The position numbers and the translations under genes were made by a program. Positions 239 to 15,101 of a stretch of DNA of 15,180 nt are shown here, piece by piece (positions within the stretch are counted from its first letter, which is position 1; the number at the start of each line of letters is the position of its first letter). Below the pieces are notes generated by a model. That model saw only the letters and a list, made by a program, of their open reading frames with translations, did not search any database and had not been told where the DNA came from. Source of the stretch: a virus. Location of the stretch: UHGV virus genome UHGV-0058267. One strand, written 5' to 3'.

Positions 239-535
239 ATGCTTACGAAAGAACCATCATTTGCATCGCTGCTGGTAAAACAAAGCCCGGCAATGCACTA
301 CGGTCACGGCTGGATCATGGGTGAGGATGGTAAACGCTGGCATCCGTGTCATTCACAAGATGAATTGCTGTCTGAATTGACCACGGGGAAACGGAGAAAG
401 TCAAAATGTATGCAGCGGAAAGTGAAGTGGTTTATCAGTTTCGTTACAGAGGGGAGAGTTATTCAGTACCTGAAGATGATTTGCTCTGTTGTTATCCGTC
501 GTTGTCGGGCGATGGCAGTTACTTTTTCACGCTAA
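239..535 (+). CDS. hypothetical early phage protein; 3' end uncertain
   Basis: ATG at 239 preceded by GAGGTG. N-terminal ~55 residues look protein-like, the distal part is Cys/Arg-rich and overlaps the 406-630 ORF out of frame. Confidence 0.3.
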   Translation: MLTKEPSFASLLVKQSPAMHYGHGWIMGEDGKRWHPCHSQDELLSELTTGKRRKSKCMQRKVKWFISFVTEGRVIQYLKMICSVVIRRCRAMAVTFSR

Positions 536-630
536 AGGATGGGACGTTTTTACGGGGAGAGCAGGTTAAAGAAACGATACGAAAAAATGTATCTCCTCTT
601 GAACGTTACCGTAATAACAAACAACGATAG
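406..630 (+). CDS. hypothetical small phage protein (74 aa)
   Basis: ATG at 406 preceded by GGAGAAAG; balanced amino-acid composition; no recognisable motif. Confidence 0.4.
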   Translation: MYAAESEVVYQFRYRGESYSVPEDDLLCCYPSLSGDGSYFFTLKDGTFLRGEQVKETIRKNVSPLERYRNNKQR

Positions 631-652
631 TTGCGTTTTGGGGATATGAATT

Positions 653-994
653 ATGGCAATTAATGGCGCTGCGGCGACTGTTCCATTAAGCCCCGGTGAA
701 CGCCTGAATGGACTTAATCACATTGCGGAGCTAAGGGCGAAAGTTTTTGGCCTGAATATTGAGTCAGAGCTTGAGCGGTTTATTAAAGATATGCGTGATC
801 CACGGGATATCAATAACGAACAAAATAAACGGGCACTGGCTGCTATATTCTTTATGGCAAAAATTCCAGCTGAACGTCATAGCATCAGCATTAATGAGCT
901 GACCACTGACGAAAAGCGGGAGCTGATTAAAGCAATGAATCATTTTCGTGCAGTGGTGAGCTTATTTCCCAGACGGCTAACCATGCCGAATTAA
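653..994 (+). CDS. hypothetical phage early protein (113 aa)
   Basis: ORF on the same strand as the rest of the early operon; no recognisable motif. Confidence 0.5.
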   Translation: MAINGAAATVPLSPGERLNGLNHIAELRAKVFGLNIESELERFIKDMRDPRDINNEQNKRALAAIFFMAKIPAERHSISINELTTDEKRELIKAMNHFRAVVSLFPRRLTMPN

Positions 995-1061
995 CCAACT
1001 AATGAAATTAATGGCGTAAACCCGCCGGGCATCCCTTTATCTAAATTCAGGAGAATTGATT

Positions 1062-1295
1062 ATGCGTAATATTGAAACCCTCACGACTAAAACCGGACCG
1101 GATGATGCAGGGCTTAATATTTTACTGACAGAGGCTCGTCTGGAAGAACGCCGGGCAAGGGCTGAAGCAATGGCAGCTCGCCTTGATAGTCTGGCGTGTC
1201 ATATTACATCCCGCCAGCTAAACCACGTCGAAGCGGCAGAACTGCTGCGTGTGACTGCTGAAGCAATCCAGAACGAAGCGCAGGAGATCCACTAA
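1062..1295 (+). CDS. hypothetical phage early protein (about 77 aa)
   Basis: ATG at 1062 preceded by CAGGAGA (the tracked ORF start at 1056 is a TTG); its stop TAA overlaps the start of the next gene (TAATG at 1293-1297). Confidence 0.5.
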   Translation: MRNIETLTTKTGPDDAGLNILLTEARLEERRARAEAMAARLDSLACHITSRQLNHVEAAELLRVTAEAIQNEAQEIH

Positions 1296-1522
1296 TGGCT
1301 GATGCAATGGATCTCGTACAGCAGCGCGTTGAAGAAGAACGCCAGCGCCATATCCGTGCTGCCCGTGCCAAAACGCCGGGCGTGTCCCGCGTGCTTTGCA
1401 TTGAGTGTGAAGCGCCAATTCCGCCAGCACGCCGCCGCGCCATTCCAGGTGTGCAGCTTTGCATTACCTGTCAGGAAATCGCAGAACTGAAAGGCAAACA
1501 TTACAACGGAGGTGCTGTATGA
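1295..1522 (+). CDS. TraR/DksA-family C4 zinc-finger protein
   Basis: Four Cys in CxxC...CxxC arrangement (CIECEAPIPPARRRAIPGVQLCITCQ), typical of phage TraR-like proteins; stop overlaps the Dam start (ATGA at 1519-1522). Confidence 0.7.
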   Translation: MADAMDLVQQRVEEERQRHIRAARAKTPGVSRVLCIECEAPIPPARRRAIPGVQLCITCQEIAELKGKHYNGGAV

Positions 1523-2376
1523 GCACCATCCTGAAATGGGCGGGAAATAAAACGGCCATTATGGCAGAACTGAAAAAATACCTTCCTGCTGGCCCGCGAC
1601 TGGTTGAACCTTTCGCGGGTTCCTGTGCTGTGATGATGGAGACGGATTACCCCAGCTATTTGGTTGCGGATATTAATCCTGATTTAATCAACCTCTATAA
1701 AAAGGTTGCCGCTGATTGTGAATCGTTTATATCTCGCGCCAGAGTTTTATTTGAGAACGCAAACAGGGAGATGGCTTATTACAACATAAGGCAGGAGTTT
1801 AATTACTCAACTGAAATTACTGATTTCATGAAAGCAGTATATTTCCTGTATCTCAATCGTCACGGTTACCGTGGTTTATGTCGCTATAACAAGAGCGGGC
1901 ATTTCAACATTCCCTACGGTAATTATAAAAATCCGTATTTCCCTGAAAAAGAAATTCGTGCATTTGCAGAAAAAGCCCAGCGGGCAACATTTATCTGCGC
2001 CAGCTTCGATGAAACGCTGGCAATGTTGCACGCGGGAGATGTGGTGTATTGCGATCCGCCGTATGACGGTACGTTTTCCGGCTATCACACTGATGGTTTC
2101 ACTGAAGATGACCAGTATCACCTGGCATCCGTTCTTGAACATCGGTCATCAGAAGGACATCCAGTCATTGTTTCTAACAGTGACACATCCCTGATCCGTT
2201 CGCTGTATCGCAATTTTACTCACCACTATATCAAGGTAAAACGCAGCATCGGTGTGGCAGCTGGCGAGGGTAAATCAGCAACAGAAATCATTGCTGTTTC
2301 CGGGCCGTGCTGCTGGATGGGATTTGATTATTCGCGTGGCGTGGATAGTTCTGCCGTGTACGGAGTACGTGTATGA
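1519..2376 (+). CDS. dam: Dam-type N6-adenine DNA methyltransferase (orphan, phage-encoded)
   Basis: ATG at 1519 preceded by GGAGGTG; N-terminus [11 protein letters not shown] and catalytic DPPY motif ([10 protein letters not shown]); about 285 aa; stop overlaps the gpA start (ATGA at 2373-2376). Confidence 0.85.
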
Positions 2377-4787
2377 GTCATGACGATATGAGCAACTCTA
2401 GCGGCTTTAACGAGGCCGCTGCAGCATTTTCATGGAACGGCCCGAAAAAGGCCATTAACCCTTATCTGGACCCGGCGGAAGTTGCGCCGGAGTCTGCACT
2501 TTCAAACCTGATCACTCTGTACGCTGCCGATAATGAGCAGGAACAGCTGCGCCGCGATGCACTGAGTGAGCAGGTCTGGGAGCGTTATTTCTTTAATGAA
2601 TCTCGTGATCCTGTCCAGCGCGAAATGGAGCAGGATAAGCTCATTAGCCGGGCAAAGCTGGCGCATGAACAGCAGCGTTTTAACCCGGACATGGTCATTC
2701 TGGCGGACGTCAGCGCCCAGCCCACCCATATTAGCAAGCAGCTGATGCAACGTATCGAATACTTCAGCAGCCTGGGCAGGCCAAAGGCTTATTCCCGCTA
2801 TTTGCGTGAGACGATTAAGCCATGTCTGGAGCGACTGGATTGTGTACGTGACAGTCAGCTGTCTGCTTCTTTCCGTTTTATGGCAAGCCATCAAGGGATG
2901 GAGGGCCTGCTGATCCTGCCTGAAATGAGTCAGGATCAGGTGAAACGCCTGTCCACCCTGGTAGCTGCGCATATGAGCATGTGCCTTGATGCAGCTTGTG
3001 GCGATTTGTATGCCACCGATGACGTTAAGCCAGAAGAAATCCGCAAGACATGGGAAAAGGTGGCGGCGGAAACCCTGCGTCTGGATGTCATCCCACCTGC
3101 GTTTGAGCAACTCCGTCGGAAAAGAAACCGCCGTAAACCCGTGCCCTATGAACTCATTCCGGGTTCGCTGGCGCGTATGTTGTGCGCCGACTGGTGGTAT
3201 CGGAAATTATGGAAGATGCGTTGCGAATGGCGGGAAGAGCAGTTGCGTGCTGTCTGCCTGGTCAGCAAAAAAGCATCTCCCTATGTCAGCTATGAAGCCG
3301 TGATGCATAAACGTGAGCAGCGCCGTAAGTCGCTGGAGTTTTTCCGTTCTCATGAACTGGTGAACGAAGACGGCGACACGCTGGACATGGAGGATGTGGT
3401 AAACGCCAGCAGCAGCAACCCTGCGCATCGCCGCAATGAGATGATGGCCTGTGTTAAAGGTCTGGAGCTTATCGCGGAAATGCGCGGTGACTGCGCCGTT
3501 TTCTACACTATCACCTGTCCGTCACGTTTCCATTCCACGCTCAACAACGGCAGACCCAACCCGACCTGGACAAATGCGACGGTAAGACAAAGCAGCGATT
3601 ATCTGGTCGGCATGTTTGCTGCATTTCGTAAGGCAATGCACAAAACCGGGTTGCGCTGGTATGGCGTGCGGGTGGCTGAGCCGCACCATGACGGTACTGT
3701 GCACTGGCATCTCATGTGCTTCATGCGTAAAAAAGACCGCCGCGCCATCACTGCATTACTGCGTAAGTTTGCCATCCGTGTAGACCGCGAGGAGCTGGGC
3801 AACAACACGGGGCCACGCTTTAAGTCTGAGCTGATTAACCCGCGCAAAGGAACACCGACAAGCTACATCGCGAAATACATCAGTAAGAACATTGACGGGC
3901 GTGGTCTGGCTGGCGAGATCAGCAAGGAAACGGGTAAATCCCTGCGTGATAACGCCGAATACGTTAATGCCTGGGCGTCTCTGCATCGTGTTCAGCAGTT
4001 CCGCTTCTTTGGTATTCCGGGACGTCAGGCTTACCGTGAACTTCGCTTGCTGGCTGGTCAGGCGGCAAGGCAACAGGGTGACAAAAAAGCAGGTGCGCCG
4101 ATACTGGATGACCCGCGCCTTGATGCCATCCTGGCTGCTGCTGATGCTGGTTGTTTTGCCACCTACATCATGAAGCAGGGCGGCGTACTGGTTCCCCGTA
4201 AATATCACCTTATCAGAACCGCTTATGAAATCAACGAAGAGCCGACCGCCTATGGCGATCACGGCATTCGTATTTATGGCATCTGGTCACCCATTGCAGA
4301 GGGCAAGATCTGCACTCATGCAGTGAAGTGGAAAATGGTTCGTAAGGCCGTTGACGTTCAGGAGGCGGTAGCCGACCAGGGCGCTTGCGCCCCTTGGACT
4401 CGTGGCAATAACTGTCCCCTTGCTGAAAATTTGAACCAACAGGAGAAAGATAAATCAGCAGATGGGGACCCCAGAACGGATATTATCAGCATGGATGACA
4501 AGGAGTTGCACGATTTCCTGCACAGTATGAGCAAAAAAGAGCGCCGGGAACTGGCAGAAAGGCTTCGCCTGGTTAAACCGATACGGCGTAAAGACTACAA
4601 ACAGCGAATTACAGACCATCAGCGACTGCAGCTCGTCTATGAGCTGAAGTCCAGAGGATTTGATGGTAGCGAGAAAGAGGTCGATTTACTCCTTCGCGGC
4701 GGCAGTATTCCGTCAGGAGCAGGCCTGCGTATCTTCTATCGGAACCAGCGTTTGCGGGAAGATGATAAGTGGCGGAACCTGTATTAA
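2373..4787 (+). CDS. A: P2 gpA-like rolling-circle replication initiator (HUH endonuclease)
   Basis: 804-aa ORF; HUH-type motif VHWHLM and paired tyrosines YIAKYISK; size and position match the P2-family A gene. Confidence 0.85.
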
Positions 4788-4879
4788 TTACGCGGGTTAA
4801 CAATTCGTGCTCTAAATAATACCCGGTATATCAGGCTGATGAACGTAAAAAAACGTTTTACATCAGTAAGATTATTGTA

Positions 4880-4899
4880 TACTGTGAATATAAACAGTG
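4880..4899 (+). promoter_or_regulatory. LexA (SOS) box, CTGT-N8-ACAG
   Basis: tactgtgaatataaacagtg: CTGT at 4882-4885, 8-nt AT-rich spacer, ACAG at 4894-4897; lies 40-60 bp upstream of the 4941 ORF within AT-rich promoter-like sequence. Confidence 0.6.
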
Positions 4900-4940
4900 G
4901 TTATATATACAGTATTGCGTGTGGTGTCATAGGAGGAAAA

Positions 4941-5129
4941 ATGCAGGACTATTTTTTGGAGTCTTTGAAGCTCCAGCGCATTGATTTTTTTCTTAAGCTT
5001 GTCGCGGCTAGTGAGTGTAGTGATGAAGAGAAGGGGCTGGCTCTGCAGTGGGTTTCTGAATTGACTGATGAACTCATGGCAAAAATCAGAACTCACGAAT
5101 ACAACCGCTCAATGGATGTCATCAGTTGA
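4941..5129 (+). CDS. small SOS-regulated protein (62 aa), candidate Tum-like antirepressor position
   Basis: ATG at 4941 preceded by AGGAGG; directly downstream of the LexA box; followed 20 nt later by the DinI-like gene. Confidence 0.45.
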   Translation: MQDYFLESLKLQRIDFFLKLVAASECSDEEKGLALQWVSELTDELMAKIRTHEYNRSMDVIS

Positions 5130-5149
5130 GGTGACTTTTATGCGCATTG

Positions 5150-5373
5150 AAATAATGATCGATAAAGAGCAGAAGATTAGCCAGTCTACCCTGGACGCCC
5201 TTGAATCCGAGCTTTACCGCAATCTGCGCCCCCTGTATCCCAAAACGGTAATTCGTATCCGAAAAGGTAGCTCTAACGGTGTGGAACTGACCGGACTGCA
5301 ACTGGACGAAGAAAGAAAACAAGTGATGAAAATTATGCAGAAGGTGTGGGAAGACGACAGCTGGCTGCATTAA
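5150..5373 (+). CDS. DinI-family protein (74 aa)
   Basis: MRIEIMIDK...LDALESEL...WEDDSWLH parallels E. coli DinI (MRIEVTIAK...IDALAGEL...WESADDWF) as recalled; RBS GAGGTGA; LexA box upstream. Confidence 0.75.
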
Positions 5374-5462
5374 GAAACGTTGCTGGCATCAGTACTTGAT
5401 TCTGAAGCCAGCAAGGTTGAACAACGAGCAGGGCGAGGCGTTAGTGTTATCATCAAAGAATT

Positions 5463-6020
5463 TCACATAAACATCTGGATTTGCTCGTTTTTTAGTTGGT
5501 TGATTTTTTCGCGCAATCTGATCTTTTCATCAGCTTTTTCCAAAGAGGCTGGTGACATGCAGTTAATCAAAGCGTCAAGGTGCTCTGGAGATTTGATAAT
5601 AAAGAACTTTTTGTATTTATTAACAAAAACGACAGAGCATTTTTTACGTTTAAGAAGCTCAATCACGTTACTCAGAGTACCCGTGCTCTTCGTATCCCAA
5701 ACCATTAATCCATAATCGGCTTCTTCTGCCATTTTGAGATCTTTCGCAGTGAAAAACGCGCGAGTGCCGGCTGCATGGCTAGTACTTACTACATGTACAG
5801 GCCATGAGCCAAGATTATTGCGCGGTTTTTCTGAGCTACTGAATACTGTGGCTTTTTCACATCCAAGTTCTAGCAATACGCGTTGAACAGATGAATCAAC
5901 ACCATTGGCATCACCAACTACAATACGAAAACGCGAGTTAACAATTTTTTTCAGACGATCCACGATGAGTGTGTCAAGGTTTTTGATGGTTATTGAACCA
6001 GCAACAAATACCGTAGTCAT
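5463..6020 (-). CDS. SLOG/DprA-like Rossmann-fold protein (about 185 aa), candidate nucleotide-binding or processing component
   Basis: Likely start is the ATG at 6018-6020 (MTTVFVAGS...) with GGAG 6 nt upstream. Motifs VFVAGS and GDANGVDSSVQRVLLELG recall the G-x-A-x-G-[IV]-D core of DprA/Smf/LOG-type domains. Starts 2 nt after the upstream gene's stop. Confidence 0.45.
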   Translation of the reverse strand: MTTVFVAGSITIKNLDTLIVDRLKKIVNSRFRIVVGDANGVDSSVQRVLLELGCEKATVFSSSEKPRNNLGSWPVHVVSTSHAAGTRAFFTAKDLKMAEEADYGLMVWDTKSTGTLSNVIELLKRKKCSVVFVNKYKKFFIIKSPEHLDALINCMSPASLEKADEKIRLREKINQLKNEQIQMFM

Positions 6021-6022
6021 CA

Positions 6023-6604
6023 CTATCTCCAAGTCAAAGCTGCAACATAAATGCTTCTAACCTTAGTATAATCGTTTAGCACAGCACAAGCAGCCTCCAT
6101 AGATGCGCCTGTATGGTAGAGGTCGTCAATGATAAGGACATTCCAGTTGCCATTATTCTCAATACTGTCATTAACAGAGAACGAATTACCCAGCGCCGTG
6201 ATTTTCTCTTCTTTTGTATTCAGGTTCTTTAGCGAAGCCCCGCCGGGGGCTTTCAACAAGAGGTCATCGAAGCATGGTTTGCCAACTAGTTTGGCTAGTT
6301 CCTGAGCTATTTCGGTCACTGGCTGGCGTGCACGCTGATTAGATGCAGCCATTGGAACGATAAACCCGACATTGCTGAAATGAGGAAAGGCATGCTCTGC
6401 TAGGCATTGGGCTAAAGGCTTAACTTGTGACCAATCGTCACGGTATTTAAGCTGGAAAAGAGATTCGCCTACCTCAGTACGCTCAGTCTCAAACCGCATA
6501 TGTCCCCACTCATCGTAACCAATGGGAATGCTGCGGATGCTGTGTTTATCCATCGCAAGACCTAATTCCCAATTTCCAACAATCTGTTTTATGTTGACTT
6601 TCAT
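6023..6604 (-). CDS. phosphoribosyltransferase (PRTase)-like protein (193 aa)
   Basis: VLIIDDLYHTGAS fits the type I PRTase PRPP-binding signature (four hydrophobic residues, two acidic, then T-G); first gene of a two-gene minus-strand operon. Confidence 0.55.
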   Translation of the reverse strand: MKVNIKQIVGNWELGLAMDKHSIRSIPIGYDEWGHMRFETERTEVGESLFQLKYRDDWSQVKPLAQCLAEHAFPHFSNVGFIVPMAASNQRARQPVTEIAQELAKLVGKPCFDDLLLKAPGGASLKNLNTKEEKITALGNSFSVNDSIENNGNWNVLIIDDLYHTGASMEAACAVLNDYTKVRSIYVAALTWR

Positions 6605-6951
6605 GGCTCACCGTTTGCTGTGTAAAACACCAAAGACTACCTCTTGTTATATTTGGTGAAAGCGAAAGTTTCATTTTTTGCAGTGGAGATCAAATGTTAC
6701 TCCGTGAACATTTTTAGCATGTGGCCTCGCTACACGGTTTGGCGTAACTACTGCATGTCTATACTGCATGAATCCGCATGATCGTTTAAGGATCGCTCTA
6801 GTTGGGGCCTGCTAGGTATGGCGGGCTTTTGCTTATGTCATGCAGGTGCATGAAAACCACTATATAAAGCGGGCAGGCGTGGCGGGGATACGATTGCGCT
6901 CGCATCCTTTTCGTATTAATCTGATATCAATTTAAAACGAAGAGTTCGCAA

Positions 6952-8055
6952 ATGAAAATTATTTCAATATTTAATAATAAAGGTGGTGTAGGAAAATCCA
7001 CTCTTGGATACCATACTGCGCATGCATTGGCAGAGAAAGGTATTAAAACTTTAATGATTGACCTTGATCCACAGTCGAATCTCACTTTACAGTGTATTTC
7101 TCCTGAGGAGTTAGAAAAGTTATGGCTAGAAGAAGAGCCATTTATTGAGGACTTCCAATCAGCTTTAGAGGAAAGTAAACTTTCGTATCAAGATTTTTTG
7201 AGTAAGCCGAGAAGCATTCATTGCTTATTAAAACCAATAGAAGATGGCGTCTACGAATCTTCTTCACTAAGTTCTGTTTATGAGCTTAATGATAAATTAG
7301 GTATTATTCCAGGTCGTTTAAGTTTGCATAAATATGAGGATAAAATCGCGAAGGGTTGGAGTGATGCCTTCATGGGAGAACCTCAAGCACTGCGACTTAT
7401 TACCAGTATTAGGAACTTATGTCTAGAAGCAGAGGAAAAATTTGGTTATGAAATGGTAATAATAGACACATCTCCTAGTCTCGGTATGCTTAACAGAGTT
7501 ATCATTTCTACATCAACCGGATTTTTTGTCCCATGCATGCCCGATATGTTCTCCACCTTTGGGATTACTAACATAGGAGAGTCATTAAAGAATTGGAAAA
7601 ATCAGTTCGATACCATGTATAAACTTTTGCCTGATAAAAAGAGAAATGTTTTCCCTAAAAACTTCGTTAAGTTTTTAGGTTATACTATTTATAACGCGAA
7701 GAAATATGAAGGCAGAAATGAACTTGATTTAGCGACCGCGCATTACTCATATGTTCAGAAAATTCCCAATGTGATCAAAAAACACATTCCTCAAGAATGT
7801 TATCAAGAGCAAGATCTTGCAGACATTTCACAACCAATTGGTGGAAAATCAGTTATTCACTCGCATAATACTCTTCCTTCTATGTCTCAAAAGTATAGGG
7901 TGCCCATATGGAAAGTTCCTTTCATCCAATCCATGAGCGCAGAAGACAGAGCCACTGTTTCAGGTAATAGACAGACTTTTCTTGACAAGCAGCAGGCATA
8001 TAGTGATTTTGCCGATTCTCTTTTGGCTCGTATTGATAAGATTGGAGAAGAATAG
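6952..8055 (+). CDS. ParA/MinD-family ATPase (367 aa)
   Basis: Deviant Walker A NNKGGVGKST near the N-terminus and Walker B-like MVIIDTSPS; strongly AT-rich coding sequence. Confidence 0.8.
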   Translation: MKIISIFNNKGGVGKSTLGYHTAHALAEKGIKTLMIDLDPQSNLTLQCISPEELEKLWLEEEPFIEDFQSALEESKLSYQDFLSKPRSIHCLLKPIEDGVYESSSLSSVYELNDKLGIIPGRLSLHKYEDKIAKGWSDAFMGEPQALRLITSIRNLCLEAEEKFGYEMVIIDTSPSLGMLNRVIISTSTGFFVPCMPDMFSTFGITNIGESLKNWKNQFDTMYKLLPDKKRNVFPKNFVKFLGYTIYNAKKYEGRNELDLATAHYSYVQKIPNVIKKHIPQECYQEQDLADISQPIGGKSVIHSHNTLPSMSQKYRVPIWKVPFIQSMSAEDRATVSGNRQTFLDKQQAYSDFADSLLARIDKIGEE

Positions 8056-8057
8056 TT

Positions 8058-8735
8058 ATGGCTCTTAAAGAAAAATATGCGGACATTTATAGGCGTCTTA
8101 AAGATGAGATCGATGCCTATGAATATTTCATGAAGAATATTAAAAATTTTTTCGAGTCAACTAAAGTAAAAGCTCATGTCCATTCACTTCGTTTTAGGTT
8201 GAAAGATATTGATCATCTTTTAGAGAAAATAGAAAGAAAAAACCATGAGGATGATCAGTTACCTGAAGCAGAGCGAAAAGGTCATATCACAGCTGAAAAT
8301 ATTTTTAACCGTATAACGGATATAGCTGGAATAAGAGTATTACACCTTCATTTAAGTCAAATGGAAGATATACATCGTGCAATTATGAGGGCAGTAGATG
8401 AAGGGGAGTATGCGCTTTTTGAAGAGCCAAAGGCATATACTTGGGATCCTGAGTCCAAAGTTTATTTTGAGAGTTTGGGTCTTAAGCCTCATGTAAAACA
8501 AAGTTTTTATACGAGCATTCATTATGTCCTGAAACCTAATAGAGAAGGGAGTGTTACTTGTTGTGAAGTTCAAGTCAGAACTCTTCTTGAGGAGGTTTGG
8601 GGGGAAATTGATCATACAATGAATTATCCTATCCAGCATGTCGATGAGAACTGCAAAGAACAGATAAAAATTCTTGCTAGACTGATTGGCGCTGGAAGTC
8701 ATTTAGCTGATTCAATTATGAAACGCTATCAATGA
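8058..8735 (+). CDS. RelA/SpoT-type nucleotidyltransferase (small alarmone synthetase / toxSAS-like, 225 aa)
   Basis: Synthetase-domain motifs in canonical order: R-x-K...K (RFRLKDIDHLLEK), D-x-x-G-x-R (DIAGIRV), Y-x-S-x-H (YTSIHYV), E-x-Q-x-R-T...W...H (EVQVRTLLEEVWGEIDH). Start is 2 nt after the ParA-like stop with GGAGAA upstream. Confidence 0.7.
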   Translation: MALKEKYADIYRRLKDEIDAYEYFMKNIKNFFESTKVKAHVHSLRFRLKDIDHLLEKIERKNHEDDQLPEAERKGHITAENIFNRITDIAGIRVLHLHLSQMEDIHRAIMRAVDEGEYALFEEPKAYTWDPESKVYFESLGLKPHVKQSFYTSIHYVLKPNREGSVTCCEVQVRTLLEEVWGEIDHTMNYPIQHVDENCKEQIKILARLIGAGSHLADSIMKRYQ

Positions 8736-8740
8736 AGAAC

Positions 8741-8761
8741 AGGCAGGAATCATACCTGCCT
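8741..8761 (+). terminator. hairpin between convergent genes, possible bidirectional terminator
   Basis: AGGCAGG (8741-8747), 7-nt loop, CCTGCCT (8755-8761), followed by a short T-containing tract; sits in the 31-bp gap between the RelA/SpoT-like stop and the portal-remnant stop. Confidence 0.3.
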
Positions 8762-8766
8762 TAATG

Positions 8767-9141
8767 TTAAATAAGTTTGTAGTCTTCAAAGTTTATTATC
8801 GGCTCATCTAACCATTTGTTAATCTCCTCAATTCTCTTTTGAAGAGGTTTAAGTTCGTTCCTAACAAAAACCATACTAGCCTTCTCCACATCCCCAAACC
8901 CCCCAACATTATTAGGCATAATCCCCATCATTTGCGGCGGCACGCGGTGCGCAGCCATCATGTCATCGCGGCTGACATTTTTGATATTCAGAAACTCATC
9001 CTTCGCCGCCACCTCTGACAACGGGATAATCTGAAGCCCGTCCTTTTTGCCGTTAGGCGAGTACATAAATAGGTTGCGGAAGTTACCCAGGGCGGCGGAG
9101 CGATGAGTTCTAACGGGATCGTGGTTGATGCGCATCAGCAT
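8767..9141 (-). pseudogene. Q: 3' remnant of a P2-family portal (gpQ-like) gene; 5' two-thirds missing
   Basis: 124-aa frame whose sequence (PNGKKDGLQIIPLSE...MGIMPNNVGGFGDVEKA) resembles the C-terminal region of P2-family portal proteins as recalled. Expected gene is about 340 codons; the frame ends about 40 bp from the divergent gpW start. Confidence 0.5.
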
Positions 9142-9182
9142 ACTGGCGTCCTGAAAGGCGGCGATACAACCGGAGGCCCGGT

Positions 9183-9542
9183 ATGACGCTTTATAGCGGG
9201 ATGAACAATACCAGCGGTAAAGCTATTACTGATATTGACCATCTGCGCCAGTCGGTGCGGGACATTCTGCTGACACCGCAGGGTAGCCGTATTGCCCGCC
9301 GGGAATATGGTTCCCTGCTGTCGGCACTGATAGATCAGCCACAAAATCCGGCATTACGCCTGCAGGTCATGTCGGCAGTGTATGTGGCGCTGAGTCGCTG
9401 GGAGCCACGGTTGACGCTGGATTCCATCACCATCAACAGCAATTTTGACGGTTCAATGGTGGTGGAGCTGACCGGGCGGCGGAATAACGGTGTGCCTGTG
9501 TCCCTTTCCGTATCAACAGGAGCAGAGAATGGCAGTGATTGA
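9183..9542 (+). CDS. W: baseplate protein gpW (gp25-like)
   Basis: 119 aa with GGAGG upstream; size and position upstream of J-I-H match P2 gpW; overlaps the gpJ start. Confidence 0.75.
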   Translation: MTLYSGMNNTSGKAITDIDHLRQSVRDILLTPQGSRIARREYGSLLSALIDQPQNPALRLQVMSAVYVALSRWEPRLTLDSITINSNFDGSMVVELTGRRNNGVPVSLSVSTGAENGSD

Positions 9543-10437
9543 CCTTTCGCAGTTGCCTGCGCCGCAGATTGTGGATGTGCCGAACTTTGAGACGCTGCTT
9601 GCCGAACGCAAGGCAGAATTTGTGGCGCTTCATCCGAAAGATGAGCAGGAGGCTGTGATCCGCACGCTGGAACTGGAATCTGAACCCGTCACCAAATTGC
9701 TGCAGGAGAACGCTTACCGTGAGTTGCTTCTGCGCCAGCGCATTAACGAAGCCGCGCAGGCGGTGATGGTGGCTTACGCGATGGGCGGCGATCTTGACCA
9801 GCTCGCTGCCAACTACAACGTGACACGCCTGACGGTGACGCCTGCTGATAATGATGCTGTGCCGCCCGTTGCAGCTGTGATGGAAAGCGATGAAGCGTTA
9901 CGCCTGCGTGTGCCTGCAGCCTTTGAGGGGCTTTCAGTTGCGGGGCCAACTGCAGCTTATGAATTTCATGCCCGAAGCGCCGACGGTCGGGTGGCGGATG
10001 CCAGTGCAACCAGCCCGGCACCTGCAGAGGTGGTGCTGACTGTCCTTAGCCGCGAAGGCGATGGAACAGCAGAAAAAGACCTGCTGGATGTGGTGGAGAA
10101 AGCCCTGAACAGTGAGAACGTCCGCCCGGTGGCTGACCGTCTGACGGTTCGCAGTGCAGAAATCATCCCGTACCGCGTGGAAGCTACCATTTTTCTCTAT
10201 CCGGGGCCGGAAGCAGAGCCGGTAATGGCAGCGGCAAAAGCCAGCCTGCAGAAGTACATCGCCAGTCAGACGCGTCTTGGTCGGGATATTCGCCGTAGCG
10301 CCATTTTTGCCGCGCTGCATGTTGAGGGTGTTCAGCGTGTGGAACTGGCTTCCCCGCTGGCGGATGTGGTCCTGAACAAAACGCAGGCGGCATCATGTAC
10401 GGAGTGGAGCGTGACCAACGGGGGAACGGATGAATAG
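9529..10437 (+). CDS. J: baseplate assembly protein gpJ
   Basis: ATG at 9529 (MAVIDLSQLPAPQ...) gives about 302 aa, matching P2 gpJ length and N-terminus as recalled; overlaps neighbours on both sides. Confidence 0.8.
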   Translation: MAVIDLSQLPAPQIVDVPNFETLLAERKAEFVALHPKDEQEAVIRTLELESEPVTKLLQENAYRELLLRQRINEAAQAVMVAYAMGGDLDQLAANYNVTRLTVTPADNDAVPPVAAVMESDEALRLRVPAAFEGLSVAGPTAAYEFHARSADGRVADASATSPAPAEVVLTVLSREGDGTAEKDLLDVVEKALNSENVRPVADRLTVRSAEIIPYRVEATIFLYPGPEAEPVMAAAKASLQKYIASQTRLGRDIRRSAIFAALHVEGVQRVELASPLADVVLNKTQAASCTEWSVTNGGTDE

Positions 10438-11035
10438 TCTGCTGCCACCGGGTTCAACACCACTGGAGCGCCGACTGGCACAAACCTGCAGCGGGATTTC
10501 TGATCTGCAGGTGCCGCTTCGTGACTTGTGGAATCCGGCAACCTGTCCGGTCAGTTTCCTGCCTTATCTCGCCTGGGCTTTCTCTGTGGATCGCTGGGAC
10601 GAGGGCTGGACAGAAAGCGTCAAACGCCAGGTGGTGAAGGATGCTTTTTATATTCATCAGCATAAAGGGACCACCAGTGCCGTGCGGCGGGTGGTGGAGC
10701 CGTTCGGATTCCTGATCCGCATTATTGAGTGGTGGCAGACCGGAGAAACACCGGGCACGTTTCGCCTGGATATTGGCGTGCAGGACCAGGGCATCACTGA
10801 AGATACCTATCTGGAACTTGAGCGGCTGATAAGCGATGCCAAACCATGCAGCCGTCACATGACTGGCATGTCCATCAATCTGCAGACCAGCGGTCCGCAT
10901 TGGGTAGGGGCTGCCAGCTATCTTGGCGAAGAAATCACGATCTATCCGTATATCAACGAAACGATTATTTCCGGTGGCACCGCGCATGAAGGCGGGGCGG
11001 TCCATGTTATTGACACAATGAGAGTGAATCCATGA
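10430..11035 (+). CDS. I: tail/baseplate protein gpI
   Basis: 201-aa ORF translationally coupled between J and H (overlap ATGAATAG at 10430-10437); conserved P2-family order. Confidence 0.7.
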   Translation: MNSLLPPGSTPLERRLAQTCSGISDLQVPLRDLWNPATCPVSFLPYLAWAFSVDRWDEGWTESVKRQVVKDAFYIHQHKGTTSAVRRVVEPFGFLIRIIEWWQTGETPGTFRLDIGVQDQGITEDTYLELERLISDAKPCSRHMTGMSINLQTSGPHWVGAASYLGEEITIYPYINETIISGGTAHEGGAVHVIDTMRVNP

Positions 11036-12774
11036 GCACAAAATTTTATACCCTGCTGACGGAGATTGGTGCGGCGAAGCTTGCCAGCGCCACTGCACTT
11101 GGTGTGCCGCTTAAAATTACCCATATGGCGGTGGGGGATGGCGGCGGAGCATTGCCGACGCCGGACGCAAAGCAGACTGCACTGGTAAATGAGAAACGCC
11201 GGGCTGCGCTGAATATGCTTTATATCGACCCGCAGAACAGCAGCCAGATTATTGCCGAACAGGTGATCCCTGAAAACGAGGGCGGTTGGTGGATACGTGA
11301 AGTGGGCCTGTTTGATGAGTCAGGGGCATTGATTGCCGTGGGCAACTGCCCGGAAAGCTATAAGCCGCAACTGGCTGAAGGCAGCGGGCGCACCCAGACC
11401 GTGCGTATAGTGCTGATAACCAGCTGCACGGACAATATCACCCTGAAAATCGATCCTGCCGTCGTGCTGGCAACCCGCAAGTATGTGGATGACAAGGCAC
11501 TGGAGCTGAAGGTGTATGTGGATGATCTGATGGCAAAACACCTTGCCGCACCAGATCCGCATTCACAGTACGCGCCAAAAGCCAGCCCGACATTTACCGG
11601 AACCCCCAAAGCGCCAACGCCAGCGGCAGGGAATAATACCACGCAGGTTGCGACCACCGCGTTTGTACAGGCGGCACTGACGGCTCTTATTAATGGTGCG
11701 CCAGCCACGCTGGACACACTGAAAGAAATAGCCGCAGCCATTAACAATGACCCGAAATTCAGCACCACCATTAACAATGCGCTGGCACTGAAAGCGCCGC
11801 TGTCGAGTCCGGCACTTACCGGAACGCCAACAGCACCTACTGCGGCACAGTCGGTCAACAATACACAGATTGCCACCACGGCTTTTGTGAAATCGGCGAT
11901 TGCAGCAATGGTGGGTTCTGCACCTGCGGCACTGGATACACTGAACGAACTGGCGGCGGCGCTGGGGAATGACCCGAACTTTGCCACGACAATGCTTAAT
12001 GCACTGGCAGGTAAACAACCGCTGGACAATACGCTGACTAATTTGAGTGGAAAGGATGTAGCTGGTCTTCTCACATACCTTGGTTTGGGAGAAGCCAGAT
12101 TCTCTGGTCGTTTGTTAAACACGAATATTTTTAAAAGCTCTGGAAAATATATCCCAACACCAGGGACAAAAAAGATAAGGGTCATTGCCTCTGGTGGCGG
12201 TGGCGGCGGCGGTGGGGTTCCTGAAACAACAGAAAATCAGCAGGCAACAGCCGGAGCTGGATTGAGCGGCGCATTTATTGAAGCATTTTTCGAGGTTGAT
12301 AATGATTTCGAAGTCAACGTTATTATCGGTGCTGCAGGTAAAGGGGGGGGAGCCGGAGGAAATTCAGGTAGTGAAGGTGGCACAACTTATTTCGGTTCCA
12401 TGATAACTGCACCAGGTGGTACAGGCGGTGGCGCGGGGGGAGCATCTGCAAACACATCATATATTCAGGGTATTTCATGGGGTGCCAGTCCGACATCGTC
12501 CGGTACAGTACTAAGAGCATTTCGCTGTAGTGCAAAAACACCAGGAGCAATGGTTATCTCTGTTAAAGCTGTAGCAGGTGGTACCGGGGGGGATACACCA
12601 TTAGGTTCAGGCGGTATAGGTGGTGCAAGTTCTTCATCATTCAGCGGACGTGGTGGTGGTAAAGCTGAGGGCTTTGGTGCTGGCGGAGGCGGAGCCTGCG
12701 CACCTGCTGGAAGTGAGGCTCAATCGGGAGGTGACGGTGCCCCGGGAATAGTTATTGTTGAGGAGTATGCCTGA
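11032..12774 (+). CDS. H: tail fibre protein gpH: constant N-terminal part plus currently expressed glycine-rich variable C-terminal part
   Basis: 580 aa; N-terminus MSTKFYTLLTEIGAAKLASA resembles P2 gpH as recalled; the left inversion site lies in-frame at 12068-12093; C-terminal about 227 aa are Gly-rich and lower in GC. Confidence 0.8.
   Translation: MSTKFYTLLTEIGAAKLASATALGVPLKITHMAVGDGGGALPTPDAKQTALVNEKRRAALNMLYIDPQNSSQIIAEQVIPENEGGWWIREVGLFDESGALIAVGNCPESYKPQLAEGSGRTQTVRIVLITSCTDNITLKIDPAVVLATRKYVDDKALELKVYVDDLMAKHLAAPDPHSQYAPKASPTFTGTPKAPTPAAGNNTTQVATTAFVQAALTALINGAPATLDTLKEIAAAINNDPKFSTTINNALALKAPLSSPALTGTPTAPTAAQSVNNTQIATTAFVKSAIAAMVGSAPAALDTLNELAAALGNDPNFATTMLNALAGKQPLDNTLTNLSGKDVAGLLTYLGLGEARFSGRLLNTNIFKSSGKYIPTPGTKKIRVIASGGGGGGGGVPETTENQQATAGAGLSGAFIEAFFEVDNDFEVNVIIGAAGKGGGAGGNSGSEGGTTYFGSMITAPGGTGGGAGGASANTSYIQGISWGASPTSSGTVLRAFRCSAKTPGAMVISVKAVAGGTGGDTPLGSGGIGGASSSSFSGRGGGKAEGFGAGGGGACAPAGSEAQSGGDGAPGIVIVEEYA
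12068..12093. repeat. left 26-bp invertase crossover site (gix/hix-like)
   Basis: ttctcacatacc-tt-ggtttgggagaa: two 12-bp half-sites around a 2-bp core, fitting the TTnTCnnAAACC half-site pattern of Gin/Hin/Cin/Pin sites as recalled. Inverted copy at 13523-13548, with a 21-bp perfect inverted match (12080-12100 versus 13516-13536). Confidence 0.6.
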
Positions 12775-13040
12775 TGAGTAATTTTGCTCTGATTGAACAT
12801 GGCGTGGTGAAAAATATTATTATCTGGGATGGAGAGGGTGATTTATTCTCTAATTGCGAAATTATAAATATTGATCATATAGATGCAGGCGTCGGTTGGT
12901 TCTATTCTGACGGAGAGTTTATAGCACCACCGGAACCGGAAATGACTGAATATGATGTTGGTAACATCGACGCGGTGATGGAAGCAGATACCAGCACCGC
13001 GCCGGGGGTTATCTGGCCAGTTCCACCTGAGATGGTTTAA
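12774..13040 (+). CDS. small protein coupled to gpH, putative tail-fibre assembly/chaperone protein for the expressed fibre variant
   Basis: Start overlaps the gpH stop (TGATG at 12772-12776) with GAGGAG upstream; 88 aa; function inferred from position only. Confidence 0.4.
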   Translation: MSNFALIEHGVVKNIIIWDGEGDLFSNCEIINIDHIDAGVGWFYSDGEFIAPPEPEMTEYDVGNIDAVMEADTSTAPGVIWPVPPEMV

Positions 13041-13269
13041 TCTCAATCAGAATGGGTTCGCCATTCTCGTTAACAGATATTTCCATTCCTTCAGGGATTT
13101 CAGATGCAGTAAAAAACCAGTTATCTTCTGGTAATTCCACAGCCCCGGTCACGTCATGAAGACCGGGGATTACTTCAGTCAAAGTAACAGGATTAAACAG
13201 GCGCACAATAAACTCTCCAGGAAAAAGCACTTGTTGATGGTCTTCCGTCGTACATCTGGCAGCGGACAT
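13009..13269 (-). CDS. small protein, putative tail-fibre assembly/chaperone protein of the silent cassette
   Basis: Minus-strand ORF converging on 12774-13040 (about 30-nt overlap at the 3' ends). Start codon uncertain (ATG at 13269, GTG at 13230, or the tracked start at 13296); overlaps the end of the silent fibre cassette. Confidence 0.3.
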   Translation of the reverse strand: MSAARCTTEDHQQVLFPGEFIVRLFNPVTLTEVIPGLHDVTGAVELPEDNWFFTASEIPEGMEISVNENGEPILIEIKPSQVELAR

Positions 13270-13534
13270 AAAAACCTGTATTACTGACCTGGTCATCCAC
13301 GATCATTGAAACGTGAACGTTATTAGGTGTGGCCTCGTAATCTGTTCTTATTCTTTCCGCTATGCTGATAAAACGTGAAAGCTTAGGTAGTGCAATTGGA
13401 TAAACGACTTTAGCCAGCCCATTATCATTGGAACCACCAGTTCCAAATACTTCTATTGCACCATCTGACCAGCGTATCCATGCACCATTGACATTAGCTC
13501 CTCGCTGAATGACATATCTGGCTTCTCCCAAACC
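13193..13534 (-). CDS. silent alternative tail-fibre C-terminal cassette, promoterless and start-less in this orientation
   Basis: The minus-strand frame reads ...GLGEAR-YVIQRGANVNG... through the right crossover site, and the same GLGEAR junction is encoded in gpH at the left site (LTYLGLGEAR). Inversion would fuse about 110 alternative codons onto the gpH constant part. Confidence 0.55.
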   Translation of the reverse strand, partial: GLGEARYVIQRGANVNGAWIRWSDGAIEVFGTGGSNDNGLAKVVYPIALPKLSRFISIAERIRTDYEATPNNVHVSMIVDDQVSNTGFYVRCQMYDGRPSTSAFSWRVYCAPV

Positions 13535-13548
13535 AACGTTTAAGAAAA
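13523..13548. repeat. right 26-bp invertase crossover site (gix/hix-like)
   Basis: ttctcccaaacc-aa-cgtttaagaaaa; inverted relative to 12068-12093; about 55 bp upstream of the invertase start. Confidence 0.6.
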
Positions 13549-13603
13549 TGCAGAGATTACGGCTAACTGGCATCATCTCCGGTTTTTATTCAGGGGGATG
13601 ATC

Positions 13604-14170
13604 ATGCTTATTGGCTATGTACGCGTGTCAACAAATGACCAGAACACCGATTTGCAACGTAATGCACTGAACTGCGCGGGATGTGAGCGGATTTTTGAGG
13701 ACAAAATCAGTGGCACTAAGTCCGACAGACCGGGGCTGAAAAAACTGCTCAGGACACTATCGGCAGGAGACACGCTGGTTGTCTGGAAGCTGGACCGGTT
13801 GGGGCGCAGTATGCGGCATCTTGTTACGCTGATAGAAGAGTTGCGCCAGCGTGGCGTGAATTTCCGAAGCCTGACTGACAGTATTGATACCAGTACCCCA
13901 ATGGGCCGTTTCTTTTTTCATGTCATGGGTGCCCTGGCTGAAATGGAACGCGAACTGATAGTTGAACGTACCAGGGCAGGGCTGGCTGCAGCTCGTGTTA
14001 AAGGCAGAGTAGGTGGACGCCGTCCTAAGTTGACCAGCGAACAGTGGGCACAGATTGGGCGTTTACTCGAGGCCGGAGAATCAAGACAGCGTATTGCACT
14101 GATTTTTGATGTAGGCGTTTCTACCATTTATCGAAAATTTCTGGCAAATAAGAGCAATGAATCTCCCTGA
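13604..14170 (+). CDS. serine-recombinase DNA invertase of the Gin/Hin/Cin/Pin family
   Basis: MLIGYVRVSTNDQNTDLQRNAL... is near-identical in its N-terminus to Mu Gin as recalled, with the catalytic Ser in RVSTNDQ and a C-terminal helix-turn-helix region; about 189 aa. Confidence 0.9.
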   Translation: MLIGYVRVSTNDQNTDLQRNALNCAGCERIFEDKISGTKSDRPGLKKLLRTLSAGDTLVVWKLDRLGRSMRHLVTLIEELRQRGVNFRSLTDSIDTSTPMGRFFFHVMGALAEMERELIVERTRAGLAAARVKGRVGGRRPKLTSEQWAQIGRLLEAGESRQRIALIFDVGVSTIYRKFLANKSNESP

Positions 14171-14312
14171 ATCAGCTTTATTTTGATTATCCCTGAAAGC
14201 AGACAAATACCGTCATTTTGTGTGAATAACGGTACAACTGCGCTTAGCTGTTTGTCAGGCACAATCACTTCAACATAGGGCGAAGCCTAATCCAATCAGG
14301 AGGTTCGCCACT

Positions 14313-15101
14313 ATGGCTCAGGATTACCACCACGGGGTGCGCGTTGTTGAAGTCAACGAAGGCACCCGATCCATTACCACGGTGAGCACAGCCATCGTGG
14401 GCATGGTCTGCACGGGCGATGATGCCGATGCAAAAATGTTTCCTCTTAATAAACCCGTACTGATCACTGATGTGCTGACTGCCAGCGGTAAAGCGGGTGA
14501 GTCCGGCACGCTGGCCCGTTCGCTGGACGCCATCGCTGACCAGGCAAAACCCGTGACCGTTGTTGTGCGTGTGCCGCAGGGTGAAACGGAAGAAGAAACC
14601 ACGACCAATATCATCGGTGCAGTGACCGCTGAAGGAAAAAAAACAGGCATGAAAGCCCTGTTATCTGCTCAGACACAGCTCGGCGTTAAACCGCGCATTC
14701 TCGGCGTGCCAGGTCATGATAACAAAGCCGTTGCTACTGAGTTGCTGAGTGTGGCGCAAAGCCTGCGTGGGTTTGCCTACCTGTCAGCATATGGCTGCAA
14801 GACGGTACAGGAGGCGATCACTTACCGTGAAAACTTCAGCCAGCGCGAAGGAATGCTGATCTGGCCTGACTTTACTGGCTGGGACACGGTGCTGAATGCC
14901 GAAGCAACGGCATATGCCACCGCCCGTGCGCTTGGTCTGCGCGCCAAAATTGATGAGCAGACCGGGTGGCACAAAAGCCTGTCCAACGTGGGCGTGAACG
15001 GTGTCACCGGAATTTCTGCAGATGTGTTCTGGGATCTGCAGGACCCGGCAACCGATGCGGGACTGCTTAACCAGAACGACGTCACCACGCTTACACGGTG
15101 A
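14313..15101 (+). CDS. FI: contractile tail sheath protein gpFI-like, apparently truncated or frameshifted at codon 262
   Basis: N-terminus MAQDYHHGVRVVEVNEGTRSIT resembles P2 FI (MSDYHHGVQVLEINEGTR...) as recalled; in-frame TGA at 15099-15101 although sheath proteins are about 390 aa; a different frame stays open from 15095 to the window end. Confidence 0.7.
   Translation: MAQDYHHGVRVVEVNEGTRSITTVSTAIVGMVCTGDDADAKMFPLNKPVLITDVLTASGKAGESGTLARSLDAIADQAKPVTVVVRVPQGETEEETTTNIIGAVTAEGKKTGMKALLSAQTQLGVKPRILGVPGHDNKAVATELLSVAQSLRGFAYLSAYGCKTVQEAITYRENFSQREGMLIWPDFTGWDTVLNAEATAYATARALGLRAKIDEQTGWHKSLSNVGVNGVTGISADVFWDLQDPATDAGLLNQNDVTTLTR

Follow-up and report, generated by a model that had tools for sequence, protein, structure and literature searches.

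A probable short-homology deletion scar joining portal and V gene remnants in a defective 186/P2-like prophage of Escherichia coli

P2-like prophages and the element analysed here

In phages 186 (NC_001317, Eganvirus) and P2 (NC_001895, Peduovirus), a cos site, a terminator and a leftward portal gene are found together with gpA and the W-J-I-H genes, and the block of head, lysis and tail-completion genes is present. The region running from gpA across cos to gpQ is described in PMC9122126 as a hotspot for anti-phage genes in P2-like phages, and a two-gene system residing there, consisting of DprA and a PRTase, was validated as protective against phages (Rousset et al. 2022, PMC9122126). Likewise, a more recent study describes defective P2-like elements in which pseudogenised core genes lie beside near-identical defence genes (bioRxiv 10.64898/2026.02.27.708500).

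Here, we analysed a 15,180-bp stretch of DNA (hereafter the window), which is an entire metagenome contig (ENA ERZ1310293 NODE_2766; 3.6x coverage, SPAdes-style) and stops short of both attachment sites. From the left, its open reading frames (ORFs) comprise early genes, a Dam methylase, gpA, a DinI/Tum-like gene and low-GC cargo genes; further right come a short minus-strand ORF resembling a portal gene, then gpW, gpJ and gpI, a tail fibre gene, an invertible fibre segment next to a serine invertase gene, and the sheath gene (Table 1). This is the gene order of the Peduoviridae (i.e., A, hotspot, cos, leftward portal, then V-W-J-I-H, fibre assembly and sheath), and it identifies the window as an E. 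coli prophage of a 186/P2-like temperate phage. As in 186 and P2, the window has cos (here a cos-like site), the terminator, the leftward portal gene, gpA and W-J-I-H. Unlike in these phages, the head, lysis and tail-completion block is missing, and cos is separated from the portal gene by 1.9 kb of cargo rather than by 0.17 kb. A scan of the whole window against Rfam returned no family at gathering score.

An intact prophage of E. coli CFSAN061762 (NZ_CP042901.1, 3123336-3164424; L001), which is the best match to the left arm of the window, has the same cargo and lies at the rcdA/ybjL locus, served as reference for the comparisons below. The window is collinear with L001 except for two deletions. 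Our analysis leaves little doubt that interval 8736-9182 is the scar of the first of these, in which one event removed 8,596 bp from a 186/P2-like prophage that had inserted between rcdA and ybjL in the E. coli chromosome.

Table 1. Features of the 15,180-bp window (coordinates are window positions; a dot marks features given without strand).
Feature	Coordinates	Strand	Description
gpA replication endonuclease	2373-4787		Pfam Phage_GPA (PF05840), E=3.6e-127
Cargo pair across cos	5463..6604	-	ComF/PRTase-like protein (193 aa) and 185-189-aa partner
cos-like site	6876..6894	+	GGCGTGGCGGGGATACGAT, with conserved left flank; 16/19 to 186 cos, 14/19 to P2 cos
Cargo pair between cos and portal gene	6952..8735	+	ParA-like ATPase (367 aa) and RelA/SpoT-domain protein (225 aa)
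Hairpin terminator	8741..8761	.	Between RelA/SpoT-domain cargo gene and portal stop codon; position of tW (186) / tQ (P2)
Portal 3' remnant	8767..9088	-	Stop codon and 106 codons, i.e., residues 237-342 of the 342 of the L001 portal; 100% identity
Chimeric 124-codon ORF	8767..9141	-	18 codons antisense to V, then 106 portal codons
Deletion junction 1	9082..9088	.	7-bp microhomology GTTACCC, single copy kept
Baseplate spike gene V, 3' remnant	9082..9186	+	Last 34 codons (residues 159-192 of 192) and stop; 100% identity to L001 V
gpW (gp25-like baseplate wedge), intact	9183..9542	+	Pfam PF04965, E=1.5e-13
Tail sheath gene, truncated	14313..15101	+	260 of 390 codons, then 2 out-of-frame codons; Pfam Phage_sheath_1, E=7.9e-29

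Anatomy of the portal-V junction

Megablast of window positions 8000-10000 against 5,426 complete E. coli genomes revealed two separate sets of matches: query positions 1-1089 gave 100% matches in prophages that carry the annotations 'ParA family', 'RelA/SpoT domain' and 'phage portal protein', and query positions 1083-2001 matched at up to 98.7% in regions annotated 'baseplate assembly protein V', 'GPW/gp25' and 'baseplate assembly protein'. None of the 5,426 genomes spans the junction, and none covers 80% of the query. Consistently, alignment to L001 divided the window into two arms, with window 653-9088 corresponding to L001 12654-21089 (98.1%) and window 9082-15092 corresponding to L001 29679-35689 (97.1%). 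The left arm ends at window 9088 and the right arm begins at 9082; a base-by-base three-way alignment confirmed that the arms overlap by 7 bp, and that the 8,596 bp between the two parental copies of the overlap are gone. In L001, this overlap (GTTACCC) is a direct repeat, one copy lying in the portal gene (21083-21089) and the other near the 3' end of gene V (29679-29685). L001 and the window share the cos-like site, the ShosTA-like and ParA + RelA/SpoT cargo, and the 3' end of the portal gene together with the terminator beside it; over ~4500-9088 the two are 100% identical. Unlike the window, L001 holds both missing stretches, i.e., the 8,596 bp that extend from the portal N-terminus to the V N-terminus and a further 2,995 bp from the sheath C-terminus to the tape-measure N-terminus.

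At the scar, the portal remnant (minus strand) meets the V remnant (plus strand) head-on, followed by gpW, which is the first complete gene past the scar; the V stop codon overlaps the W start (ATGA), and window 9082-9183 translates to the V residues given in Table 1. To the left, a terminator scan resolved the terminator as a stem of 7 pairs with a run of T behind it, on the minus strand. It is identical in sequence in L001, and both 186 and P2 have a terminator annotated at the same place. The same hairpin was recovered as inverted repeat I1 in a repeat search of 8600-9400, which beyond it returned just short matches of chance size.

The portal origin of the minus-strand ORF, which the initial annotation had recognised, was supported by three profile matches: phrog_68 portal (E=1.8e-52, profile positions 230-339 of 344), TIGR01540 (E=1.9e-37) and Pfam Phage_portal (E=1.6e-9). 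The last of these scored 37.9 bits, slightly under the 39.1-bit gathering cut-off, because the portal is truncated; the full-length portal of the relative scored 66.1 bits. In addition, the portal remnant is 60% identical to W of phage 186 and 58% identical to Q of P2, in each case over the C-terminal third. ORF residues 19-124 equal L001 portal residues 237-342 at 100%, so the possibility raised with that annotation, that the frame might not be portal-related, can be dismissed. Several of its details were revised, however. The ~124 C-terminal portal codons that it counted are portal-derived for 106 codons only, the first 18 being antisense to V, since the ORF runs from the portal codons through antisense V to the first upstream ATG. 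The ~40 bp that it placed between this frame and gpW agree with the 41 bp measured from ATG to ATG, but this apparent gap is V coding sequence. Its description of the portal remnant as abutting gpW does not hold, as the V remnant lies between the two; the junction is located 54-60 bp inside the ORF, and the position originally proposed for it was off by 54-100 bp. The alignment to an intact P2/186-family prophage that the annotation had called for is what placed the junction at 9082-9088. Taken as a whole, the 124-codon ORF is an accidental fusion and a junction-specific marker, and it is probably not a functional gene.

The gene content lost with the 8,596 bp was read from the L001 annotation, in which 14 genes are affected. 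On the head and packaging side, these are portal residues 1-236, the terminase ATPase subunit, the GPO scaffold, the major capsid protein, the small terminase and the head completion protein; on the lysis and tail side, they are tail protein X, holin, lysozyme, LysB, LysC, the tail-completion proteins R and S, and V residues 1-158. Loss of the capsid, terminase and lysis module, as initially proposed, was thus borne out by collinearity with L001 minus these 8,596 bp, and as for capsid genes relocated elsewhere in the prophage, the exception then envisaged, no head genes occur between the junction and the chromosomal gene ybjL in relatives that share the junction and extend into the chromosome on the right (L007-L009, see below). 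Since this module is gone, the element is unable to package DNA on its own; more broadly, established P2/186 genetics dictate that it cannot build heads, package DNA or lyse the cell. Late transcription is affected as well. The TGT-N12-ACA dyad is the activator motif of P2-family late promoters, and L001 carries such dyads between its terminase and scaffold genes, upstream of V (29141) and upstream of the sheath gene; the sheath dyad, at 14219, is the only one left in the window. Three late promoters are lost, namely the divergent terminase-scaffold pair and the one upstream of V, and because the dyad upstream of V was deleted, W-J-I-H is without its late promoter. The gene for the late activator, ogr, falls outside the window; relatives with the same junction (L007-L009) do carry it (PF04606).

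How might the deletion have arisen? The 7-bp overlap is the main clue: among 200,000 random junctions simulated on L001, microhomology of at least 7 bp had P=5.6e-4, which marks the GTTACCC repeat as a mechanistic signature rather than a chance match. Tracts of 7 bp are far too short for RecA-dependent exchange. We infer that the deletion arose by microhomology-mediated illegitimate recombination and not by a site-specific or homologous route. More specifically, a parental prophage with the GTTACCC direct repeat in its portal gene and near the V 3' end would have undergone short-homology illegitimate recombination, by replication slippage or repeat annealing, deleting the 8,596 bp and leaving one copy of the repeat. 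The product is 106 portal codons on the minus strand joined to 34 V codons on the plus strand and followed by W; the early genes, the replication genes, the cos-like site and the two cargo pairs were left untouched, and further deletions then eroded the tail genes. A site-specific alternative is at hand within the element itself, where the gene for a Hin/Cin-type recombinase (13598-14170; Pfam Resolvase E=1.7e-52) lies 4.4 kb away and is accompanied by an invertible fibre segment. Serine invertases occasionally act on quasi-sites, which in this case would have to lie in the portal gene and in V. However, the crossover sites of this system (12068-12100 and 13516-13548, with a ACCTTGGTTT-type dyad) are unlike the junction flanks, and no dyad-symmetric 26-bp site of the hix/gix/cix type is visible at the parental breakpoints. 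Moreover, exchange by serine invertases takes place at a 2-bp core and not at a 7-bp repeat, with inversion strongly preferred to deletion. We consider deletion by the invertase barely credible, and retain illegitimate recombination at the GTTACCC repeat as the preferred reading.

Other carriers of the junction and a second deletion

An exact-protein look-up (NCBI, Logan and ENA) returned the 124-aa chimera on 39 contigs; at NCBI, it is labelled 'phage portal protein [Escherichia coli]' (GCZ34142.1). In the isolate assembly GCA_003303855.1 (L007), the chimera lies in a 266-kb contig with E. coli chromosomal flanks, and the flanks of contigs with the same junction (ybjL to rimK) are 99.3% identical to those of E. 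coli AREA_497. Through a look-up with gpA, we also reached an independent metagenome scaffold from another sample (ERZ28575295; L025), which matches window 2108-10783 at 99.94% with 5 mismatches, a match that runs through the left arm and the junction into the window's own right-arm allele. Exact scans of genome, viral and metagenome contig collections with a junction 36-mer/24-mer gave no match; for the metagenome set this negative is weak, since a string taken from this very contig found no counterpart there and the set evidently lacks this assembly.

These carriers bear directly on the possibility of an assembly artefact, by which the portal 3' end would have been wrongly joined to a V-W region or two P2-like prophages merged. 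The following features speak for it: (i) the contig is SPAdes-style at 3.6x coverage; (ii) the matching E. coli genomes carry a median of 2 P2-like places; (iii) isolates that share the junction carry another right-arm allele, and the assembly path could have switched within 130 bp of identical sequence; and (iv) the window's J allele is on no other contig, a look-up of the J protein having returned the window's own contig only. The corresponding W look-up was uninformative on allele linkage, the exact protein being present in 24,489 blocks. Against an artefact, the chimeric ORF recurs on the contigs noted above, including that of an isolate, L025 reproduces the junction, and a contig from the same sample as L025 (L011) has the second junction described below. 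As the 124-aa chimera is possible only with this junction, its presence on 39 contigs, together with L025, makes misassembly very unlikely, and we attach next to no weight to it.

The junction-1 carriers fall into two groups by their tail arm. From position 9218 onward, the window/L025 lineage differs by ~2.7% from L007-L009 and L001, and these same sequences are identical leftward of the junction over more than 6 kb and rightward over 130 bp. Such a pattern could mean that the same deletion occurred twice, independently, at GTTACCC in prophages with different tail alleles; the identical junction beside divergent right arms fits this view, and short-homology deletions can recur at one repeat. 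In contrast, left arms identical over so long a distance and right arms that stay identical for 130 bp past the junction argue against two events, as does the portal-to-V deletion in AREA_497 (L002), which used other breakpoints, so that the site is not an obligatory hotspot. Furthermore, P2-like tail regions are known mosaics, and one deletion with later homologous exchange needs fewer coincidences. We therefore regard a recurrent deletion as unlikely; the simplest reading of the two right-arm alleles is that the deletion happened once and that the tail arm was later exchanged by homologous recombination. As the remnants are free of substitutions, this deletion is recent.

At window 15092, L001 position 35689, within the sheath gene, is joined to position 38684, midway along the tape-measure gene. 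This second deletion comprises 2,995 bp, with a 1-bp overlap that is compatible with chance; lost with it are the C-terminal part of the sheath, the tube gene, E and E', and the tape measure's N-terminal half. Past window 15093, no complete E. coli genome gave a match; the exact sheath-tape-measure chimeric ORF is present on two other metagenome contigs, L011 and L012 (human-gut metagenome). Other carriers of junction 1 have second deletions of their own: the window, L011 and L012 share the one from sheath to tape measure, L007 and L009 have one from fibre gene H to tape measure (3-bp overlap), and L008 has one from W to D (2-bp overlap). In all four junction-1 variants seen, the early region is intact, as are the two cargo pairs. 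The series formed by the window, L007 and L008 offers an ordered view of erosion and could be used to study module exchange with intact phages.

Compared with the intact close relative, essential virion genes are lost or truncated, 14 by deletion 1 and 5 more by deletion 2, and the result is a locked, defective prophage with its accessory genes still aboard. The initial annotation had the element keeping its replication, cargo and baseplate/fibre genes; this stands for replication and cargo, but the baseplate spike V is lost and the tail region is interrupted at 15092. Tail production is also ruled out by deletion 2. The element was considered as an R-type tailocin and this was rejected, because V is cut to 34 codons, the sheath breaks off after codon 260, and deletion 2 took the tube gene, E/E' and half of the tape measure, leaving no tails possible; in addition, the element's own lysis cassette (holin, lysozyme and LysB/LysC) was inside the deleted 8,596 bp. 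A P4-like helper-dependent satellite was rejected on gene content, as each of the window's genes pairs with one at the collinear position in L001, an ordinary prophage; among the ORFs scanned against general Pfam, NCBIfam and PHROGs, none had a match named for Sid, Psu, Delta, Epsilon or primase alpha functions.

The cos-adjacent cargo and comparison with known systems

The P2 cos string quoted in the initial annotation was correct, corresponding to the first 19 nt of NC_001895, and its reported absence from interval 8736-9182 was confirmed, but the annotation had missed the cos-like site further left (Table 1). This site was spotted by visual inspection and by an alignment with the genome ends of 186 and P2; a search of the P2 cos string with up to 3 mismatches allowed did not find it, the site differing from P2 cos at 5 positions. 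Together with its flanks, it matches the circularised 186 end at 51 of 64 positions, ~150 bp around it are conserved in 80 P2/186/Fels-2-like phage records, and it is identical and in the same place in L001. Given this location and its presence in the intact relative, the absence of cos from 8736-9182 is uninformative on the deletion, which left the cos-like site untouched.

Cargo pairs lie on both sides of this site. The ParA-like ATPase matched Pfam AAA_31 (E=6.5e-28) and its partner RelA_SpoT (E=9.6e-17), and PADLOC returned weak matches alone for this pair (PDC-M28B and PDC-S33). Window 4500-9088 has zero mismatches to L001, the pair being intact. The pair across cos matched the PADLOC models ShosT (E=1.3e-8) and PsyrT (E=1.5e-7) as well as TIGR00201 comF (E=3.6e-5), and is a putative system resembling ShosTA or the DprA-PRTase system. 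Cargo between gpA and gpQ beside cos is likewise found in the hotspot and the defective P2-like prophages of PMC9122126 and bioRxiv 10.64898/2026.02.27.708500. In the passages of these papers that were consulted, junction 1 is not described and the ParA + RelA/SpoT pair is not mentioned.

The kept cos-like site and gpA replication module and, in relatives, a kept immunity region were the basis on which packaging in trans was put forward. By this proposal, the cos-bearing remnant would be packaged or transferred by a co-resident or superinfecting 186-like phage. We think it quite improbable. If it were true, the remnant would be a satellite-like mobile defence island derived from a helper-type phage by deletion, and ongoing exchange with intact relatives would account for the two tail alleles found beside one identical junction.

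A further question is why the scar persists, as distinct from what it is. Adaptive domestication would have the deletion spread by removing lethal lysis and virion functions while keeping the cargo, yielding a fixed defence island under host selection, and this would be compatible with a short-homology deletion as the origin of the scar. Intact cargo and early region in all four junction-1 variants, with all three further deletions falling in the tail region, are in line with it, as is the pattern reported for defective P2-like elements (bioRxiv 10.64898/2026.02.27.708500). Yet selection is unmeasurable on remnants without substitutions and the comparison has no statistical power; tail genes make up ~13 of the 24 kb remaining, so that three of three deletions would fall among them in ~16% of cases by chance (our own estimate), and the ParA + RelA/SpoT pair is a putative defence system, its PADLOC matches being weak. 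We consider domestication less likely than not.

On its own, the scar matters little. It does provide a base-resolved example in which one short-homology deletion strips a P2-like prophage of all head, packaging and lysis functions while its cos-adjacent cargo stays. The 124-aa ORF, publicly named 'phage portal protein', can serve as a lineage marker, and tools for annotation or prophage completeness should not count it as a portal.

The defective P2-like prophage of E. coli AREA_497 (NZ_CP123329.1), an unrelated strain, offers a comparison at the same locus. As in the window, a portal 3' remnant there lies head-on to a V 3' remnant, followed by W, J and I, and a second deletion, from tape measure to D, has removed tail genes. 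Unlike the window, AREA_497 kept 231 portal codons and ~52 V codons with an overlap of at most 3 bp, and it carries retron Ec78-type cargo and a portal allele of 85% identity. Its deletion is an independent event, and because breakpoints and cargo differ between the two, decay from portal to V recurs without a fixed hotspot. The scar in the window is ordinary prophage decay of a kind already known.

Gene decay in the window and in other prophages

A second deletion lies at window position 15092, where 2,995 bp are missing and codon 260 of the sheath gene is fused to the middle of the tape-measure gene (ORF 14313-15101), with an overlap of 1 bp at the junction. This deletion took away the C-terminal part of the sheath, the tube gene, E/E' and the N-terminal half of the tape measure, and the same chimeric ORF was found in two other metagenome contigs, L011 and L012. 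A portal-to-V deletion with breakpoints unlike those of the window was observed at the same chromosomal locus in L002, a defective P2-like prophage of E. coli AREA_497 (NZ_CP123329.1; 11988-12836 and 20303-22042), which carries retron Ec78-type cargo and has a separate deletion from the tape-measure gene to D. Thus, the portal-to-V deletion of L002 is independent, and two-step decay of the same shape also arose in this unrelated element.

By gene calls only, the Dam methylase of L007 and L008 (16766-17624), two contigs from isolates sharing the window's portal-V junction, falls into two pieces (247 aa and 29 aa), the window protein being 285 aa; these split calls suggest further pseudogenisation in the L007/L008 sub-lineage.

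Mosaicism, proposed allele exchange and the fibre segment

Relative to L001, an intact prophage of E. coli CFSAN061762 with the same cargo, the early region of the window (500-4500) is 1-5% diverged, whereas 4500-9088 is identical; judged from this alignment pattern, the element is a mosaic. The Fil-like gene region has been replaced, with 282 bp in the window (371-652) versus 32 bp in L001 (12622-12653), and the 282-bp version is common to the window, L002 and L007. Comparing contigs with the identical portal-V junction (the window, L008, L009 and the isolate assembly L007 [GCA_003303855.1]), together with L001, we found two tail-arm alleles, ~2.7% apart among the contigs sharing the junction, whose divergence begins at window 9218, after the first 130 bp of the right arm. 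The presence of two alleles at one junction suggests, at the sequence level, that the tail arm of the defective prophage was swapped with that of another P2-like element after the deletion.

Further to the right, the inverted repeats bounding the tail-fibre segment are 85% complementary. Between them lie the 3' end of fibre gene H, two small ORFs for putative fibre-assembly proteins and, on the opposite strand, an alternative fibre C-terminus.

Coordinates of cargo and tail-fibre features
Feature	Location	Strand	Remarks
ComF/PRTase-like protein + 185-189-aa partner	window 5463-6604	-	
ParA-like ATPase (367 aa) + RelA/SpoT-domain protein (225 aa)	window 6952-8735		cargo operon between cos-like site and portal gene
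Invertible tail-fibre segment	window 12068-13548		33-nt inverted repeats at 12068-12100 and 13516-13548
Alternative fibre C-terminus	window 13193-13576	opposite to fibre gene H	
Hin/Cin-type serine invertase	window 13598-14170		adjoins invertible fibre segment
S-V insertion, L017 (GCA_050112895.1)	1222-3325	-	
S-V insertion, L013	2800-3330	-	
S-V insertion, L016	2189-3349	-	

Cargo genes and hotspot layout

The cargo hotspot is divided in two by a cos-like site, GGCGTGGCGGGGATACGAT (window 6876-6894), which is identical to 186 cos at 16/19 positions, is surrounded by a conserved block (~6752-6904) and lies 1.9 kb upstream of the portal stop codon. On the packaged chromosome, the two cargo pairs would occupy opposite ends, one right and one left.

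In some intact P2-like prophages, additional genes on the minus strand are found between tail gene S and baseplate gene V, those of L017 forming a PARIS-like pair (AAA_15/AAA_21 + DUF4435). This gap, which falls within the stretch deleted in the window, seems to form an additional hotspot for cargo.

The GC content of the ParA + RelA/SpoT operon is 36%, versus ~55% for the tail genes and 51% for the early region, and PADLOC returned only weak matches to candidate families (PDC-M28B, 2.2e-7; PDC-S33, 3.2e-5). The two genes are candidates for an uncharacterised anti-phage pair that might act through alarmone or nucleotide pyrophosphokinase activity.

PADLOC matched the ComF/PRTase-like protein to ShosT (1.3e-8) and PsyrT (1.5e-7), and its partner contains a GDANGVD motif, which we take to be SLOG/DprA-like from its appearance. 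This pair is similar to the DprA+PRTase system that Rousset et al. 2022 (PMC9122126) validated in the same P2 hotspot.
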